A stretch of 43,062 nucleotides of DNA, from the UHGV virus genome UHGV-1377764; one strand, given 5' to 3'. The notes beneath the pieces are model-generated. The model saw nothing but the letters and a program-made list of their open reading frames with translations. It ran no database searches and was not told the origin of the DNA. The first letter of the stretch is position 1, and each line of letters starts with the position of its first letter. Shown in pieces: positions 4,187-39,286 of the stretch. A program made the position numbers and the translations under genes. Source of the DNA: a virus.

Positions 4187-4543
4187 TACTCGTCCTCCTC
4201 TATATCTATCTCAACATCTCTGCCTTCTAAAATGTGTTGAGTATTAATGCCTTTTGTTTTCAATTTATGCATCTTACAACACCTTCACAATTCTAATTTG
4301 ATTGTTTGCATATCCTCTTTTGTTGTAGTAATTACATAATTTATTCAAACTATATAAATCTGTAGGGATATCATACATACCCAACTCCCACTCACCATCA
4401 GTTAATACTTCCATAGCATAAATATGATTTTTGTCTTTAAATCCAGTATGCATCTTAATATCCTCCTTCTTCTAACCAGTGAATAAGTACTCCAGCTCCG
4501 TAAATTACTGCTCCAATAAATAATAGCCCCATCATCATGAATG

Positions 4544-4777
4544 TCATTTTGTTTCCTCCTCTTTATATAGTTCAGTGTTGATAATATATACTGACTGAAT
4601 TAAAAAGTCACGTGTATCCTCTAACCTGTTTATAAGGTTGTTTACCCCAATACTTTTAAAATACTCTATCGTTCTACTTATGTCATTTATTTTACCTTCT
4701 AAGATACTCTTATGCTCAATTAATTCTTCATGTGTCATTTTAAGTCCTCCCTTATCTCTATGAATTAATAATACCAT
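4544..4777 (-). CDS. hypothetical protein
   Basis: 77 aa ORF, RBS AAGGGAGG. Confidence 0.45.
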   Translation of the reverse strand: MVLLIHRDKGGLKMTHEELIEHKSILEGKINDISRTIEYFKSIGVNNLINRLEDTRDFLIQSVYIINTELYKEEETK

Positions 4778-4789
4778 GATATAAAAAGA

Positions 4790-4822
4790 AAGTCAACTGC
4801 TTTAGTCAACTTTCTTTCAAAA
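4790..4822 (-). terminator. stem-loop (9-bp perfect stem AAAGAAAGT/ACTTTCTTT) followed by U-rich tract on minus-strand RNA; internal attenuator/terminator in early operon
   Basis: Read directly: aaagaaagtcaactgctttagtcaactttcttt; minus-strand transcript continues UUUUAUAU. Confidence 0.4.
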
Positions 4823-4825
4823 ATA

Positions 4826-5044
4826 TTAAACTTTTTCTGAGGTGGTGATTGACACAATGTTGTTCACAGTTAGAAGTACCTCGTATTTATATGTTCCCAT
4901 GCCAATTAATTCTTTTTTATGTTGAATATAGATTGATTCTTCTCCCAACTCTATTGCACGTTTAAATAGAGTAATTAGCTCTCTATCTGTTTCTACCAAA
5001 AATGGTTCTGTTGAATTGGTTGTGTAAATACTATATTTTTTCAT
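4826..5044 (-). CDS. hypothetical protein
   Basis: 72 aa ORF. Confidence 0.4.
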   Translation of the reverse strand: MKKYSIYTTNSTEPFLVETDRELITLFKRAIELGEESIYIQHKKELIGMGTYKYEVLLTVNNIVSITTSEKV

Positions 5045-5056
5045 GTTTATGGCCTC

Positions 5057-6643
5057 CTATTGTACATCATTGAAAATGTTTACATACTCTGTTCCTGCTA
5101 GTGCGTTCATCAAATATGGTTTAATTGATTCGTTATCTCCATTGCGTGCGATTTTTAGACCAGTGAGCACACGTGCTTTACTTGTACGTTTTTCTTCAAA
5201 CCCTTGCTTCAGCAGCAATTCTTTCATGGTACGCCAGTTCATTGATTTGTTTATATTGTTCTCTTTTGTGTACACATTAAAGATATTCTTCAATAACGTT
5301 AGGTTAACAGTACCTTCTGCATCTTCCACAATCACAGGTACTTCACTCAAAAACTCTTTAGATGGATCATTTGATTCAATATAAGCTTTTTTGAACGCAA
5401 TCATATCTGCTGTTTCTGTGAATGGGTTTTCACCATTTGTACCAGCGTCTAAAATCTTTTTGAATTGCTGAATACAGAACCATGCAAATTTACCCAGCTG
5501 CTCTTTTGACTCACGTTCCTCACGTTGTTTGTTAAACTCATTAATGCGTTCACGTGCTTCTGGTGTGTCTAAGTTTGTGTTAAAATTTAAAATCAAAATA
5601 CGTCTATACCATCCATTGGTGCGGTCATTAAAAGCTGGTAGTTCATTCATTGAAAACATCAACTTCGCATAGTTGGTAAAGCTAAATGCGTCCTTCCCCT
5701 TTTTCTCAGCATGAACGGCGTCAAGACCTCCTGAAAGCTTTTTCAGTGTTTCAGTACCTTTCACAAAATTGGCACTAGAATCAGCTTCAAAGTTCAATAA
5801 TTTATGGTGTAATGAAGCTTTGTCAAAACGATTGTTTTTATCTGCTAAGCTGTCTAGACCAACTGCTGAGCTGTTTTTGAAGCCAATTAATTTATTCATG
5901 ATAAAGCCACCCACATAAGATTTACCATTTGAACCATTACCTAAGAGGTATAATATTGATTGATATTTGTACTCTCTATAATACATATAACCAATATACT
6001 CATATAATGTCTGTGCTTGATCTTTCAGTAGATAATCAATCCATTGTTTAGCCAATAATTCATCTGTTTCATCTGTCTTAATTAATGGATATGGTAATTG
6101 CAGTGTGTGGTAATCTTCTAACCTGGTCTCACGTATATCATTGGTTTTAAAGTCATATGTCCCATTCTCAAACGCAATAATATTTGGATTAGGATTGTCA
6201 CCTAAGGGTGCATGTTCACCACGTGTCATGGAGCGATTAGCTAACTCAGGTGCTAGTTTCTTCATTTCTTTACGTATTTCATTCCCAAATTCTGGATTTC
6301 TGAATTGTGGTGTAAATTTTGGTGCTAAAATGTTCTCAAAGTACCAATCTGAATATTTGTAACTACCTAGATTTACTTCAGACCAGATACGTGTGTCTGC
6401 ATTGTACACATATGGAGCGTTTAAGTTAGGGTGTGCATACACATAGGCTAACTGATTAAATTTATCAATAAATAATTCTTGTTGGATTTCAAACTTTGGC
6501 TGTGTGCCGTCTTTACCTCCGTAGTACATTCGTCCTAGTTCTGAATTGAAGTCCACAAATTCCTCACTTGGAAAGTGTTTATTTGAAACAGGTAATAACT
6601 CTTCAACAGATGCTGAATAGTCTATTTTCGTTAATTCATTCAT
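5057..6643 (-). CDS. phage primase-helicase, D5/P4 (VirE-like) family with SF3 helicase domain
   Basis: 528 aa; Walker A LLGNGSNGKS, motif C FSMNELP, conserved WYRRILILNF; leader/promoter cassette at 6644-6705. Confidence 0.7.
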   Translation of the reverse strand: MNELTKIDYSASVEELLPVSNKHFPSEEFVDFNSELGRMYYGGKDGTQPKFEIQQELFIDKFNQLAYVYAHPNLNAPYVYNADTRIWSEVNLGSYKYSDWYFENILAPKFTPQFRNPEFGNEIRKEMKKLAPELANRSMTRGEHAPLGDNPNPNIIAFENGTYDFKTNDIRETRLEDYHTLQLPYPLIKTDETDELLAKQWIDYLLKDQAQTLYEYIGYMYYREYKYQSILYLLGNGSNGKSYVGGFIMNKLIGFKNSSAVGLDSLADKNNRFDKASLHHKLLNFEADSSANFVKGTETLKKLSGGLDAVHAEKKGKDAFSFTNYAKLMFSMNELPAFNDRTNGWYRRILILNFNTNLDTPEARERINEFNKQREERESKEQLGKFAWFCIQQFKKILDAGTNGENPFTETADMIAFKKAYIESNDPSKEFLSEVPVIVEDAEGTVNLTLLKNIFNVYTKENNINKSMNWRTMKELLLKQGFEEKRTSKARVLTGLKIARNGDNESIKPYLMNALAGTEYVNIFNDVQ

Positions 6644-9592: not shown

Positions 9593-9627
9593 ACTTGGTT
9601 TACTTAACTTACACAGTATCCCTCATA

Positions 9628-20135: not shown

Positions 20136-20147
20136 CCCTTAAACCTA

Positions 20148-20175
20148 GTCTTAATTGGCTAGGTTTTTTATTTAC
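20148..20175 (+). terminator. terminator hairpin after major tail gene (CCTAGTCTTAATTGGCTAGG + T6)
   Basis: Read directly. Confidence 0.55.
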
Positions 20176-20239
20176 ACACTTGAGGGATTATATGATATAA
20201 TGAAGTAGTAAAGATAAATAAAACATTGGAGGAACTAAA

Positions 20240-29906: not shown

Positions 29907-30152
29907 ATGATTGAAATTTATGAAACTTTAGACAATATGAATGAAGAAGGTAAATATTATAATGTTTATATTGTACCAGAAAGCTTGCCAGTTAGTTCTC
30001 CATTCACAAGATTAAAGCCAGCCTCTTCACTAATTAATCCAAGATTTGATTGGTTAAAAGGAGAATGGGTTAGTGACGAAGTTAGCGTTCTTAATAAGCG
30101 TATTACAGACTTAGAAAAAAGAATTAACGAACTAGAAGAACTCTCTAAATGA
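29907..30152 (+). CDS. small tail-fibre-associated protein with C-terminal coiled coil
   Basis: 81 aa, RBS AAAGGAGAG. Confidence 0.4.
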   Translation: MIEIYETLDNMNEEGKYYNVYIVPESLPVSSPFTRLKPASSLINPRFDWLKGEWVSDEVSVLNKRITDLEKRINELEELSK

Positions 30153-30197
30153 GAGTTCTTTATTTGCTTTTAAACGCATAACTACCCAACTATCAAA

Positions 30198-30231
30198 ATT
30201 TAAAGTGCTTAGAATGCTCGTGAGAGACACA
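30198..30231. repeat. 34-bp direct repeat copy A (atttaaagtgcttagaatgctcgtgagagacaca) upstream of lysis cassette
   Basis: Identical except 1 nt to 31987-32020. Confidence 0.8.
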
Positions 30232-30307
30232 CTATTTCGCTTATATAGATGTTATAATGATTACAGACCTAGGAAACGAGGTGATAAATGAATAGGAGTG
30301 TTTTGCT

Positions 30308-30586
30308 ATGAACTTAAACGATAAGGAGTTTGTTTCATTAAAGGAACAGTTAGCAAGAATTGAGGTTAAACTTGATGATATACCTGAGATTAAAGCTGAC
30401 TTAAAAGAGTATGGAAGCCGCTTAGAACGTCAATCTGAAAAAGCAGATAAGGCATACAGCATGTCCATGCAGAATAGAGAAGCATTAGCTGATCTTAAAA
30501 ACAGCTACACATGGTTAACACGCACAACTGTTGGCGCAGTTATTGGAGCATTAATTAGTATTGGTTTATCCTTATTTATGAAATAG
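30308..30586 (+). CDS. XhlA-like holin-associated membrane protein
   Basis: 92 aa, N-terminal coiled coil, C-terminal TM helix VGAVIGALISIGLSLF; precedes holin and amidase as in xhlA-xhlB-xlyA. Confidence 0.55.
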   Translation: MNLNDKEFVSLKEQLARIEVKLDDIPEIKADLKEYGSRLERQSEKADKAYSMSMQNREALADLKNSYTWLTRTTVGAVIGALISIGLSLFMK

Positions 30587-30598
30587 GAGTGATGTAGA

Positions 30599-30880
30599 AT
30601 GAAAAAAATAAACTGGAAAGTTCGTTTTAGCAAAGACAACCTAACATTTATCTTGCGTTTTATTGGCGCATTAGCAGTACCTATCCTAGCATACTTTGGT
30701 TTGAAGTTTGAGGATATAACATCCTTTGACACATTATTGGATGTATTAGTCAGAGCAGTAAGTAACCCTTACGTATTAGGTTTAACTGTAATTAATGCAT
30801 TAAATATGATTCCAGACCCAACAACTAAAGGTATTACAGATAGTGAAAAAGCATTAAACTATACAGAACCAAAGAAATAA
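30599..30880 (+). CDS. holin (SPP1/phi-LC3 Phage_holin_1-like)
   Basis: 93 aa, MKKINWKVRF N-terminus and two hydrophobic segments. Confidence 0.6.
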   Translation: MKKINWKVRFSKDNLTFILRFIGALAVPILAYFGLKFEDITSFDTLLDVLVRAVSNPYVLGLTVINALNMIPDPTTKGITDSEKALNYTEPKK

Positions 30881-30896
30881 GAAAGAGAGTGATATT

Positions 30897-31922
30897 ATGG
30901 TGGAGATTATCAACAAAACAGTCACACGTGGTGTGGCTGGACGTAGACCAGGTTCAGTAAAAGGTGTAGTATTCCATAATACATGGGGTAACTCAACAGC
31001 TAAACAAGAGGCTAATCGTTTAGCAGCAATGAACAACAATCAGTTAGCTGCTGGATTTGCGCATTACTATATTGACAAGAATACAATCTGGCGTACAGAA
31101 GACACCTATAATGCCGCTTGGCATACCGCAAACAGTGACGGAAATACAAACTATATTGGCTATGAAGTGTGTGGTAACGATCAAACACCACTAAAAGACT
31201 TCTTGCAAGCTGAAGAAAATACATTCTGGCAAATTGCACAAGATTTGAAATACTATGGATTACCTGTAAATCGCAACACTGTGCGCTTACATCATGAGTT
31301 TTCAGCCACGCAATGCCCTAAACGTTCATTAATCATTCACACTGGTTTCAACTCAACACAGGCACAGCCAGCTAATGTAACTAATGCAATGAAGGACTAT
31401 GTGATTAAAAACGTTCTTAAGTATTACAATAACACTAGTTTAAAACCAGATGGTAAAGCACCATCCACTGGTGGACAAACACCTCCAAGTGGTGCTAACG
31501 TAACACCTTCAACACCTAGCCAACATGATAAAGCCGTTGCTAATACAAAACCTAAACATCAAGGTAATGCATGGGGTAAACTTGACTACTTCAATGGTCA
31601 TGGTAAAGATCAGATTCGTGTAGCTGGTTGGTTAGTTCCTGATAAGCCACAAGGTCCTATTGGAGGATATGCATATGTTATCTTCATGCAACATGGAACA
31701 AACAAAGAGTTAACACGTGTTCAATCAGCTGGTATTAAACGCCCAGACGTGAAGAAAGCATATGGCTATCAAGGTGGACAAGAGCTTGGTTTTGATGTAA
31801 CTGTTAAGAAAGCTCAGTTCAAAGGTAAAAAAGTAGATGTTATCTTGCGTAGAGCTAATAAAGCTAACGGCGAAGGTGCAGTAAATGATGTGCGAATTGA
31901 TAGTATCTATTTAAGTCTATAA
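30897..31922 (+). CDS. endolysin: N-acetylmuramoyl-L-alanine amidase (Amidase_2/PGRP-like) with C-terminal cell-wall-binding domain
   Basis: 341 aa; N-terminal amidase_2-like region, Pro/Thr/Ser linker, C-terminal binding domain. Confidence 0.7.
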   Translation: MVEIINKTVTRGVAGRRPGSVKGVVFHNTWGNSTAKQEANRLAAMNNNQLAAGFAHYYIDKNTIWRTEDTYNAAWHTANSDGNTNYIGYEVCGNDQTPLKDFLQAEENTFWQIAQDLKYYGLPVNRNTVRLHHEFSATQCPKRSLIIHTGFNSTQAQPANVTNAMKDYVIKNVLKYYNNTSLKPDGKAPSTGGQTPPSGANVTPSTPSQHDKAVANTKPKHQGNAWGKLDYFNGHGKDQIRVAGWLVPDKPQGPIGGYAYVIFMQHGTNKELTRVQSAGIKRPDVKKAYGYQGGQELGFDVTVKKAQFKGKKVDVILRRANKANGEGAVNDVRIDSIYLSL

Positions 31923-31924
31923 TA

Positions 31925-31956
31925 AAAAACCACTGGTTAGACCAGTGGTTTTTTGC
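31925..31956. terminator. bidirectional rho-independent terminator (13-bp stem AAAAACCACTGGT / ACCAGTGGTTTTT, 3-nt loop) where the two gene blocks converge
   Basis: Read directly; A-run on one side and T-run on the other. Confidence 0.85.
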
Positions 31957-31986
31957 TTTTAAATGGGTAATCACCTTGTTTGATTT

Positions 31987-32020
31987 ATTTAAAGTACTTA
32001 GAATGCTCGTGAGAGACACA
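31987..32020. repeat. 34-bp direct repeat copy B overlapping the last 7 codons of the deoxynucleoside kinase gene
   Basis: atttaaagtacttagaatgctcgtgagagacaca. Confidence 0.8.
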
Positions 32021-32693
32021 GCTTTTTAGAAAAATAGGTCTGTTCTTCACCGCTAATGGCTCCCACATGAAATAAATCATTCAGTATCATCATTAGTACT
32101 TTCATACGATGTTCTTGATTATTAACATAGTCAAGAGATGTCACATCTATGATTAATTTAGGGAAGCCTAAATCTTTATTCATCCAGTCTTGATAATTAG
32201 CATGATGGTTCCTAAAGTATTCATATAATTCAGTGCCTTCTTCAACCTTCTCAAATTCTCTTGCTCGTTTATTAATGCGCTTGATTTCTTCTTCAAAACT
32301 ACAATTTAAAACAATCATCAAATCTGGTGATTTCTTAGGTAAAGGTTCTAATTCTTTTAACATGCGATTTAATAATTTTGTATACACATCTAACTCTAAT
32401 TTATCTACAGCACCTTCATCATATAACTGCTTCAAAAATATTGAATCTTCATAAATTGAGCGATCAAGGATTCCATTTTTAACACTCATAGCCTCCTGAA
32501 TAAGTTCAAAACGTTTTGATAACATGTCAATCTGAAATAGAAAGCCATATTTTTTCTTGTCTGCGTAGAACTTTTCCAGTAGGGGGTTATCCTCCACTGG
32601 CTCATAAACAGCCTTGGTTTCTAATAATTCGCTTAATAATTTTGTCATTGAGGATTCACCTACCCCAATAACTCCTGCTAATGTGATCAACAC
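31998..32693 (-). CDS. deoxynucleoside kinase (dNK family)
   Basis: ORF as given (start may be TTG/GTG at 32693/32696 after AGGAGGAAG); DRS motif LDRSIYED and lid RINKRAR; P-loop reads GVIGVGESSMT (Glu where Lys expected). Confidence 0.65.
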   Translation of the reverse strand: MLITLAGVIGVGESSMTKLLSELLETKAVYEPVEDNPLLEKFYADKKKYGFLFQIDMLSKRFELIQEAMSVKNGILDRSIYEDSIFLKQLYDEGAVDKLELDVYTKLLNRMLKELEPLPKKSPDLMIVLNCSFEEEIKRINKRAREFEKVEEGTELYEYFRNHHANYQDWMNKDLGFPKLIIDVTSLDYVNNQEHRMKVLMMILNDLFHVGAISGEEQTYFSKKLCLSRAF

Positions 32694-32928: not shown

Positions 32929-33661
32929 TTAATTTCCTCCTTTAACTTTAAATAATTTTTCAACTCGTTGTTTATTTTTTATATCTCCTTGATTTGTAAT
33001 AGATACCTTTGTGTCTTTACTCCATATACATTCAAATTTATCTTCTGGCATTTGGTATTCACTAATTAATACTGTATTGTTTTTAGCTAATTCAATAGCC
33101 CACTTATCAAAGTCCGCATATGGAAAGTTTCCAGTTGAATAAGATAATGTTTTTCTATATGGTGGGTCTAGATAAAAGACACAGTTTTTATAATCAGTTG
33201 GGTTATAATCAGTAAATGATTTACATTCAAATGTAACATCTTTAAACAGTGTTGATTGTTTTTTTTAAATTTTTGATAGCACCAGCTGACCACTCACCGC
33301 TATCGTCTCCTTTTTTGTTTCTAGCGTATCCACCAAAATACTTAGCTCCAAACGAACCACAAAATCCCACTAAACCAACATACCAGGGTTCGTAGCTATC
33401 TCTATTTGCTTTTACACGATTGTATTCTTCTTCTGAAATTCTTGAAGGTATTAAAGATGAATCATCTCTAGTATAGTTTAATAATGCAATTAATTCTTTG
33501 TGTACATCACTACCTATTTTATTATGATGGTTTATTTTATCAATCATATTAGCTCCACCTACAAATGGTTCAATATATGCTACTGTCTCATCTGTAATGT
33601 AACTTTGAATGATTGGTGCTAATTCTTTACTAAGTCTGTTTTTACTTCCTACGTATCTCAT
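32929..33661 (-). pseudogene. Dam-like N6-adenine DNA methyltransferase, copy 2, split by +1 frameshift at A8 tract
   Basis: N-terminal ORF 33242..33661 (MRYVGSKNRL..EPFVGGANM motif I) stops just after A8 (plus T8 33259-33266); C-terminal 93 codons incl. FYLDPPY motif IV intact in +1 frame to 32929; ~90-95% nt identity to 36045..36773 at both ends. Confidence 0.7.
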
Positions 33662-33694
33662 GTTCTTTACTTCCTCCTCTTAACTTATGAATTA

Positions 33695-33723
33695 AGTATA
33701 ACACCTCAGTTAAGAGGTGTCAA
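33695..33723 (-). promoter_or_regulatory. early promoter TTGACA-N17-TATACT with spacer palindrome ACACCTC-TTAAC-TGAGGTGT, conserved leader
   Basis: Read directly. Confidence 0.55.
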
Positions 33724-39067: not shown

Positions 39068-39286
39068 TTACTTGTGTAAGTTATTTACACATGATTCAAG
39101 TATTTCGTCAACGGTTGCCTGATTAAGTTTAATTAGACCCAATAATACAATTATACTGCTAGTGTTATACTCTTCTAGGTCACTATGATTCAGGCCTGTA
39201 TATCTAACAATATTTTCCTCAAACTCCACTGCTTTTGAATCATACTCTTCTACCAATTTAATCAGTTCCTCAGTTGTTAAATTCAT
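39068..39286 (-). CDS. hypothetical protein
   Basis: 72 aa ORF. Confidence 0.4.
   Translation of the reverse strand: MNLTTEELIKLVEEYDSKAVEFEENIVRYTGLNHSDLEEYNTSSIIVLLGLIKLNQATVDEILESCVNNLHK

Follow-up and report, generated by a model that had tools for sequence, protein, structure and literature searches.

A conserved terminator-adjacent unit in two copies around the lysis genes of Enterococcus siphophages

Small composite terminator/promoter cassettes, the PeSL, mediate indels and gene replacement in T4-type phages (PMC2839356, PMC4122927; Arbiol et al. 2010, Comeau et al. 2014). By analogy they appear to be the closest described concept to the unit presented here, which occurs in two copies around the lysis genes of UHGV virus genome UHGV-1377764 (43,062 nucleotides, the whole of which is called the window below). 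Like a PeSL, the unit is a short conserved non-coding stretch repeated within the genome, in which a predicted stem-loop terminator would be joined to a promoter-like sequence (conserved in copy 2 only), and it flanks genes varying between close relatives, where it appears to offer points of homologous exchange leading to indels and replacements, here of the receptor-binding protein (RBP) module and of a cargo slot. The two differ in that PeSL occur in many copies dispersed in the hyperplastic regions of large Gram-negative myoviruses and carry a T4 early promoter, whereas the Enterococcus unit has two copies (three in phages 9184 and Vaquero) at fixed syntenic sites around the lysis cassette of ~42-kb siphophages. 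Moreover, the sequences are unrelated, and promoter activity is only predicted for the Enterococcus unit, the -35 element being missing in copy 1. A second comparison is offered by the 'linker' sequences at gene boundaries of lambdoid phages, which have been proposed as crossover points of mosaicism. They too are short conserved homologies at module borders that allow unrelated modules to be swapped, and in the Enterococcus phages the edges of the unit are breakpoints of homology; the linkers do not form a duplicated pair in each genome, however, and the unit exceeds them in length, keeps a constant internal layout and shows more conservation than a role in crossover alone would call for. Measurements of homeologous recombination between diverged sequences by lambda Red are among the contents of one published study (PMC2327257). 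Finally, the pair resembles a target-site duplication in being a direct repeat around a discrete block of genes, but there is no empty site and no mobility gene, the repeat is a graded one of ~75 bp, and the same pair surrounds non-orthologous cassettes in more than 100 phages.

A conserved unit on both sides of the lysis cassette

The phage of the window, a virulent siphophage of Enterococcus faecium with a genome of ~43 kb, belongs to the IME-EFm1 / IME-EFm5 / Aramis group. Its late arm runs rightward from ~10.6 to 31.9 kb and ends with the lysis cassette (30308-31922, plus strand), consisting of an XhlA-like gene (30308-30586, PF10779), a holin gene (30599-30880, PF04531) and an Amidase_2 endolysin gene (30897-31922, PF01510), while the early/replication arm runs leftward and meets the late arm at the terminator T2. 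An initial annotation, made from the letters of the window, had reported a 34-bp direct repeat around these genes, and both its coordinates and its identity hold. The 34-mer ATTTAAAGT(G/A)CTTAGAATGCTCGTGAGAGACACA lies on the plus strand at 30198-30231 and 31987-32020, with 33/34 identical positions and a G/A difference at position 10. When up to three mismatches were allowed, no further match to the 34-mer was found in the window, and there was none in 100 dinucleotide-preserving shuffles. The weaker shared segment TTGCTTTTAAA that had been noticed upstream of both copies is also present (30165-30175 and 31954-31964), and it is part of an alignable stretch of ~75 bp (30157-30231 versus 31946-32020) with a constant offset of 1789 bp. 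A profile built from 32 copies of this longer unit and run against the window with nhmmer recovered the two copies and no extra weak ones.

The architecture of the unit was derived from the intergenic regions on both sides, which were aligned from 16 GenBank relatives and then extended with Efquatrovirus phages and 29 IMG/VR loci. It consists of the terminator T-tract TTTGCNTTTAAAYG, block A TAATCACC, a spacer of 21 nt, the 12-mer CTTAGAATGCTC, seven variable nucleotides (N7) and ACAC; the 34-mer is the core of this unit plus 10 nt of the spacer. The two copies have the same orientation, one on each side of the XhlA/holin/amidase cassette, and each follows a plus-strand terminator, beginning at the T-tract of a predicted intrinsic terminator (T1 or T2), a point that the initial annotation had overlooked. 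T1 (30135-30161, plus strand) stands at the end of the tail/RBP genes and has an 11-bp stem followed by a T-run, with the stop codon of the open reading frame (ORF) 29907-30152 in its loop; its stems differ among relatives with compensatory pairing (GAACTCTC/GAGAGTTC, GCCCTC/GAGGGC and CACCTC/GAGGTG). Copy 1 (30157-30231, plus strand) comprises the T-tract with TTTGCTTTTAAACG, block A in the form TAACTACC at 30179-30186, the 21-nt spacer and the core CTTAGAATGCTC-GTGAGAG-ACAC at 30208-30230. T2 (31923-31955, plus strand) marks the convergence of the late and early arms, and it looks bidirectional from the A-run before and the T-run after its stem. Copy 2 (31946-32020, plus strand) comprises the T-tract with TTTTGCTTTTAAATG, block A TAATCACC at 31968-31975 and the core at 31997-32019. 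The spacings, 21 nt from block A to the core and 7 nt within the core, are invariant in every copy of every lineage, and the 12-mer is nearly invariant over ~70 unique copies. In most relatives the exact repeat is only ~24 nt long, as copy 1 reads AAACGCC and copy 2 AAAGTGC; it reaches 34 bp in the window because copy 1 there has GTG, as in copy 2, where CGC is usual, and this GTG has the look of a short conversion tract. Inspection of the alignments revealed no dyad symmetry or internal repeats in the unit that are conserved across lineages.

The units are far better conserved than what lies next to them. When the lysis region of the window is compared with that of the Efquatrovirus phage TexasRanger, the only stretches that align as DNA are the units and the promoter after copy 1, at 74–84%. 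The proteins encoded nearby are 38% (XhlA-like), 33% (holin) and 52% (NrdH) identical, and the endolysins are unrelated (E=1.1). Since the units stay similar beside diverged or unrelated proteins, where neutral non-coding DNA would be unrecognisable, the comparison implies that purifying selection acts on both copies. The distribution is correspondingly clade-wide. With copy 1 of the window as query, 23 phage records were matched; with copy 2 of Efquatrovirus, 115 records at 155 places, mostly overlapping the annotated end of a glutaredoxin gene; and in IMG/VR, 29 loci. Copy 1 occurs in the window and in each of the 16 close relatives, as well as in the two Efquatrovirus loci that were examined, and is represented by 37 unique sequences overall. 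Efquatrovirus and the siphophage group of E. faecium have the two-copy layout in common, also in phages that have no deoxynucleoside kinase (dNK) gene, and no relative exceeds three copies. Two pattern scans of 185,579 bacterial and archaeal species genomes, one per species, gave no match, on which a host origin and prophage copies were rejected; every occurrence of the element was in a phage. Outside the Enterococcus group, the unrelated 72-kb IMG/VR contig L045 contains a non-coding region of ~900 bp (4380-5240) with an exact 26-nt core, GTGCTTAGAATGCTCGTGAGAGACAC, followed 20 nt later by TGCTATATA, and with two copies of GAAAAAATTTTCTCATTTTTTATT.

Concerted change and module borders

Within a genome, the two copies share the variable part of the core. 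In the E. faecium group the N7 of each copy reads GTGAGAG (as it does in DELF1); both copies have CTATGAA in Efquatrovirus and GTGAGGT in 9184, while the flanks that are specific to each copy, CCCACCT after block A in copy 1 and CCTT(G/A)(T/C)TT in copy 2, are common to all groups. By these alignments the copies are shown to evolve in concert within each lineage. More drastic events are also visible. TexasRanger and Vaquero have a unit of the copy-2 type, along with its terminator, in place of the entire copy 1, and their two copies are 93–95% identical. In addition, Vaquero (L021, 2640-2790) carries the 3' half of T1 and the whole unit twice in tandem upstream of the lysis genes, a duplication of 77 bp with its junction directly after the core ACAC, at a CAC microhomology. 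The third copy in 9184 (L003, 5292-6733) lies elsewhere, at ~5569-5618, and has ~23/26 core identity as counted by eye, with the spacer included. The gene for the B-family DNA polymerase is split there by the insertion of an ABC-ATPase/GNAT gene pair: the frame stops after YKVK, a gene for a 214-aa ABC-type ATPase follows, and an ORF with a GNAT domain is fused in frame to the last ~70 polymerase residues, with the translated third copy of the unit as the linker.

The ends of homology with the window gather at the same places. In 9/16 close relatives homology begins at 30136-30189, with another tail/RBP module upstream, and in LG62, where another gene follows on the right, it ends at 32029. 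Breakpoints of the deletion type lie at 31973 and 32055-57, and those at 30900 and 31506 are the edges of a swap of the endolysin catalytic domain. The initial annotation had asked whether the repeat marks the boundary in phages with other lysis modules, and the pair does hold the same two positions around non-orthologous cassettes. Taken from these genome comparisons, the outer edges of the unit are shown to be recurrent junctions for module replacement, insertion of cargo genes and deletion. Under laboratory conditions, a hybrid of Aramis and dArtagnan had exchanged ~3 kb, from part of the tail module (Dit, Tal, RBP) to part of the lysis module (PMC11210271).

Two observations touch these borders. 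An Amidase_2 N-terminal domain (341 aa, MVEIINK...) is common to the endolysins of the window, IME-EFm1, BUCT630 and 9184, and an unrelated N-terminal domain (325 aa, MAYKVER...) is found in those of Aramis, dArtagnan, LG62, KEN18, KEN20 and KEN22, with the same C-terminal region from ~31506. And in the IMG/VR locus L043 (UViG_2974598095), a minus-strand ORF starting MKEHWRDIKDYEGL, HNH/NUMOD-like as judged by eye only, is inserted between the endolysin gene and copy 2; its start codon abuts block A, whose reverse complement AAGGTGG is an apparent ribosome-binding site.

Predicted transcription signals and a proposed role of the unit

The position of the unit relative to transcription signals differs between the two copies. 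After copy 1, the lysis cassette has an extended -10 element TGTTATAAT (30250-30258, plus strand; TG at 30250-1, TATAAT at 30253-8), which is conserved in all copy-1 loci. The core occupies positions -65 to -32 of this lysis promoter, which has no in-register -35: the core-end GACACA lies 21 nt, not 17, upstream of the TATAAT, and this offset is kept in Efquatrovirus. Elsewhere in the window, promoter-like sites of one class (TTGACA-17-TGnTATACT) belong to the leftward early arm, those of a second class (TACACA-17-TGATATAAT) are located at 9610, 11304, 12558, 12626, 19502, 20174 and 42593 on the plus strand and at 39077 on the minus strand, and further minus-strand sites are found at 33723, 9229 and 995. 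The region after copy 1 resembles these extended -10 sigma-A promoters in its TGnTATAAT and in the likeness of GACACA to the TACACA -35, but apart from the longer spacing there is the difference that the TAGAAT within the unit is not preceded by a TG at the proper place and, in copy 1, lacks a -35. Copy 2 has no downstream -10. Instead, TTGTTT or TTACTT is kept exactly 17 nt before TAGAAT; in the window, TTGTTT (31976-31981) matches the consensus at 3/6 and TAGAAT (31999-32004) at 5/6 positions, on the plus strand. We infer that TTGTTT-17-TAGAAT in copy 2 may be a moderate sigma-A-like promoter directed rightward, in which case it would face the 3' end of a leftward sub-operon driven from 33723-33695.

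Several promoter-like sites in the window stand directly after terminator hairpins, for example at 20140-20200, and to judge from the sequence a terminator-promoter composite seems to be the usual intergenic layout in this phage. Just downstream of the polymerase gene there is a leftward promoter TTGACA-17-TGTTATACT (33676-33723), and an inverted repeat CCTCTTAACT.../...AGTTAAGAGG overlaps its spacer, so that promoter and terminator hairpin seem to lie on top of each other there.

Considering the conservation, the fixed spacings and the position of the unit, we regard a cis-regulatory element acting at the level of DNA, whose two copies double as homology blocks for module shuffling, as the best overall explanation and a reasonably probable one. 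The cis-regulatory role would take different forms at the two sites. The core of copy 1 would probably modulate or activate the lysis promoter from the upstream region, since a location upstream of a promoter that lacks an in-register -35 is typical of an activator- or modulator-type site. At copy 2, the candidate promoter would fire rightward against the end of the leftward NrdH/dNK sub-operon. And because the units are kept similar between phages, they could serve as homology blocks for swaps of the RBP module, of the lysis genes and of the contents of the cargo slot.

Several points weigh against this explanation. Phages of the E. faecium group have CAACTA (window) or CACCTA where a -35 would stand before the TAGAAT of copy 1, because of which TAGAAT is no good promoter there, and a consensus promoter scan of the window flagged neither unit. 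The promoter-like TTGTTT-N17-TAGAAT that the initial annotation had pointed out in copy 2 is present, and it is conserved as TTGTTT or TTACTT. A rightward transcript from copy 2 would run antisense to early genes, with no plus-strand terminator predicted within ~3 kb, and any role for such a transcript is speculative. Moreover, copy 2 is dispensable, since EF36P1-3, DELF1 and EhiS_268 are viable and do not have it; gene conversion alone, with no shared binding factor, could give the concerted N7 pattern; and our literature search found no transcriptome paper and no primer-extension data for these phages. Nor did it find a paper on this repeat.

If the regulatory role is true, the unit would give the first handle on the control of lysis-gene expression in Efquatrovirus-like phages. 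It is in any case a strongly conserved non-coding element, spread across the clade, of Enterococcus phages that are under development for therapy, and its site is exactly that at which lysis genes, accessory cargo genes and the modules that set the host range (RBP) are exchanged. The recombination of these phages in Appelmans-type training might be explained by it, and natural homology arms for engineering could be taken from it.

A more specific version, which we consider rather unlikely, takes the units as an operator pair for a phage-encoded DNA-binding protein (so far a candidate), with which N7 would co-evolve. Such a protein would time lysis transcription at copy 1, control the antisense promoter at copy 2 and possibly loop out the 1.8-kb cassette; on this assumption alone, N7 would change together in both copies because of co-evolution with its binding protein. 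No convincing match to DnaA, cre, sigma-54 or SPO1 late promoter boxes was seen in a comparison by eye, which was no formal test. And no phage sigma factor or regulator is annotated in the manually curated Aramis genome, in which the small early ORFs have not been subjected to a remote-homology search.

It is also conceivable, and in our view unlikely, that the unit acts in RNA, as a site for RNase processing or stability on late transcripts that read through the terminators, or as part of a small RNA. Cleavage after T1 and T2 would then free the lysis mRNA and leave upstream fragments capped by terminator hairpins. This fits the location of each unit, which directly follows the 3' side of a hairpin and has the strand sense of the late transcripts. 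In L043, moreover, the HNH-like gene apparently has the complement of block A for its ribosome-binding site, which would mean that, in that phage at least, the minus strand is transcribed at this place. However, when the units and the xhlA leader were folded, each on its two strands, no stable or unusual structure emerged (z-scores from -0.40 to +1.04), and an Rfam search returned no family at threshold, with sub-threshold matches only, centred on the terminator T2. Furthermore, little RNA should contain the units because strong terminators precede them, and a DNA element agrees better with the constant distance at which a -10 follows in copy 1 and in L045.

According to another explanation, the unit is a neutral recombination scar or homology arm that is regenerated by gene conversion and frequent recombination between phages. 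The concerted evolution, the tandem duplication in Vaquero, the mosaic junctions at the unit edges and the dispensability of copy 2 would all be expected from it. Conversion, however, homogenises the two copies, yet the pair as a whole could still drift, and this is not what is found: an identity of 74–84% and exact spacings are kept where the adjacent proteins are 33–52% identical or unrelated, and the 12-mer hardly varies. The occurrence of the core in the unrelated 72-kb contig is likewise difficult to reconcile with a scar. We therefore find this explanation quite unlikely.

We hold the same opinion of the proposal that the unit is the recognition site of a free-standing HNH or homing endonuclease of the phage, or another kind of recombination hotspot, at which cleavage and repair drive conversion and gene turnover. 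These genomes carry several HNH genes each (five are annotated in Aramis), HNH genes adjoin the cargo slot in KEN22, SSBHU, TexasRanger and L043, and both the clustering of junctions at the unit edges and the concerted evolution agree with it. But no endonuclease is consistently linked to the units, and none adjoins either copy in the window, Aramis or BUCT630. Homing sites are usually single and within conserved genes. In addition, such a site leaves the fixed position after terminators and the link to the lysis promoter unaccounted for.

Genes next to copy 2 and neighbouring features

The initial annotation had offered a different history, in which the 3' end of the dNK gene was the place where the lysis module came in by insertion or exchange, the upstream copy being a relic of that end and the pair a target-like duplication. 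Three features speak for it: copy 2 overlaps the dNK stop, the minus strand of copy 1 reads CLSRAF* after a stop, and the repeats flank a compact 1.75-kb module. It is correct that copy 2 encodes the last codons of the dNK gene (31998-32693, minus strand), since this ORF ends KKLCLSRAF with its stop at 31998-32000, so that the last six codons and the stop come from the core of copy 2. The window protein (PF01712, E=9.7e-39, residues 3-205 of 231, profile positions 1-199 of 203) is truncated at the C-terminus, as it lacks the ~40-aa C-terminal extension of phage homologs. The nearest homologs outside the phage group, in E. hirae EH802P1, Schiekvirus A2 and nattely, have 265–278 aa and no CLSRAF tail, and the alignment of homologs, including that of the IMG/VR relative L031, with the window protein ends at about residue 225. 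In L031, the order is endolysin, T2, copy 2 and then, on the minus strand, a PnuC-like gene, dNK and NrdH (L031, 240-2015); the PnuC-like NMN transporter (233 aa, PF04973) thus separates the full-length dNK (267 aa) from copy 2. Schiekvirus A2 (L019) likewise has dNK followed by the transporter, and this shared order suggests that a dNK-transporter cassette has moved between unrelated Enterococcus phage groups.

The longer homologs without CLSRAF and the arrangement in L031 show that a deletion fused dNK to the element. As read from these homologs, the window lineage has lost the transporter gene and the last ~40 dNK codons, and codon 225 is now joined to the right edge of the core; dNK overlaps copy 2 because the PnuC-like gene and the native dNK 3' end were deleted, and its translation now uses the TAA of the element. 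Other phages have other contents in this slot, namely dNK, dNK with PnuC, GH13 or nothing. In LG62 it holds a gene of the GH13 alpha-amylase family with its stop exactly at the core edge. Efquatrovirus has no dNK, and its NrdH-like glutaredoxin gene ends in the core with a TAG in N7, in another frame than the TAA used by dNK. The dNK-less IME-EFm1, KEN18, KEN20 and KEN21 are deletion derivatives in which copy 2 remains along with the last ~35 nt of dNK, with a CACTAAT microhomology at the junction; in EF36P1 a larger deletion starts from block A, with an AATCA microhomology. Copy 1 is present in DELF1 and EhiS_268, which have neither dNK nor copy 2. On this comparative evidence both copies are shown to predate the position of dNK and to be independent of it.

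The notion of a relic is thereby reversed in direction: the homologs lack CLSRAF, L031 keeps a gene in between, copy 1 occurs in phages without dNK, and the ending of dNK has been taken from the element. An ORF end that matches an intergenic repeat need not be the source of that repeat. A target-like duplication is not borne out either. No unoccupied single-copy site was found in the 16 close relatives or the Efquatrovirus loci, where copy 1 always precedes a lysis cassette, and copy 2 is missing through deletions or in DELF1-type phages, never along with the cassette. The cassette has no mobility gene, the homology is graded over ~75 bp and starts at the T-tracts of terminators, and in Efquatrovirus the pair surrounds a non-orthologous cassette with NrdH abutting copy 2. 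What survives of the insertion model is that the repeats stand at module borders, as in 9/16 relatives and LG62, and as a whole we judge it very improbable. That the unit serves in packaging or replication, as pac/cos, as a terminal repeat or as an origin, is just as improbable, for although the unit is a conserved non-coding element in two copies and the L045 copy lies in a long repeat-rich intergenic region, the published termini of IME-EFm1, which are fixed with a 265-bp direct terminal repeat at the record ends (PMC3896407), are ~20 kb away, the surroundings of the units contain neither iterons nor an AT-rich unwinding region, and the 9-nt cos sequence is absent from the window; a packaging site was rejected on the first and last of these grounds.

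Some minor features of the window may be added. Between the lysis promoter and xhlA, a mini-ORF of seven codons (MNRSVLL, 30288-30311) has its own GAGGTG ribosome-binding site, and its TGA overlaps the start of xhlA (ATGA); it is kept in the E. faecium group and has no ATG in DELF1 and EhiS_268. The first 17 positions of the window are a G followed by 16 T, which may be an artefact of assembly or of the record end. The slot between NrdH and the DNA polymerase (33242-33661, 32941-33671) is a second variable slot among the relatives, occupied by the gene for a complete DNA methylase, for an HNH endonuclease or for a Mom-like protein, or else by small ORFs. In the window this slot holds a single ORF of 139 aa, and the same slot is occupied by an annotated DNA methylase gene in IME-EFm5 (945 nt) and RG1 (720 nt); judging from this position, the 139-aa ORF may be a truncated methylase.

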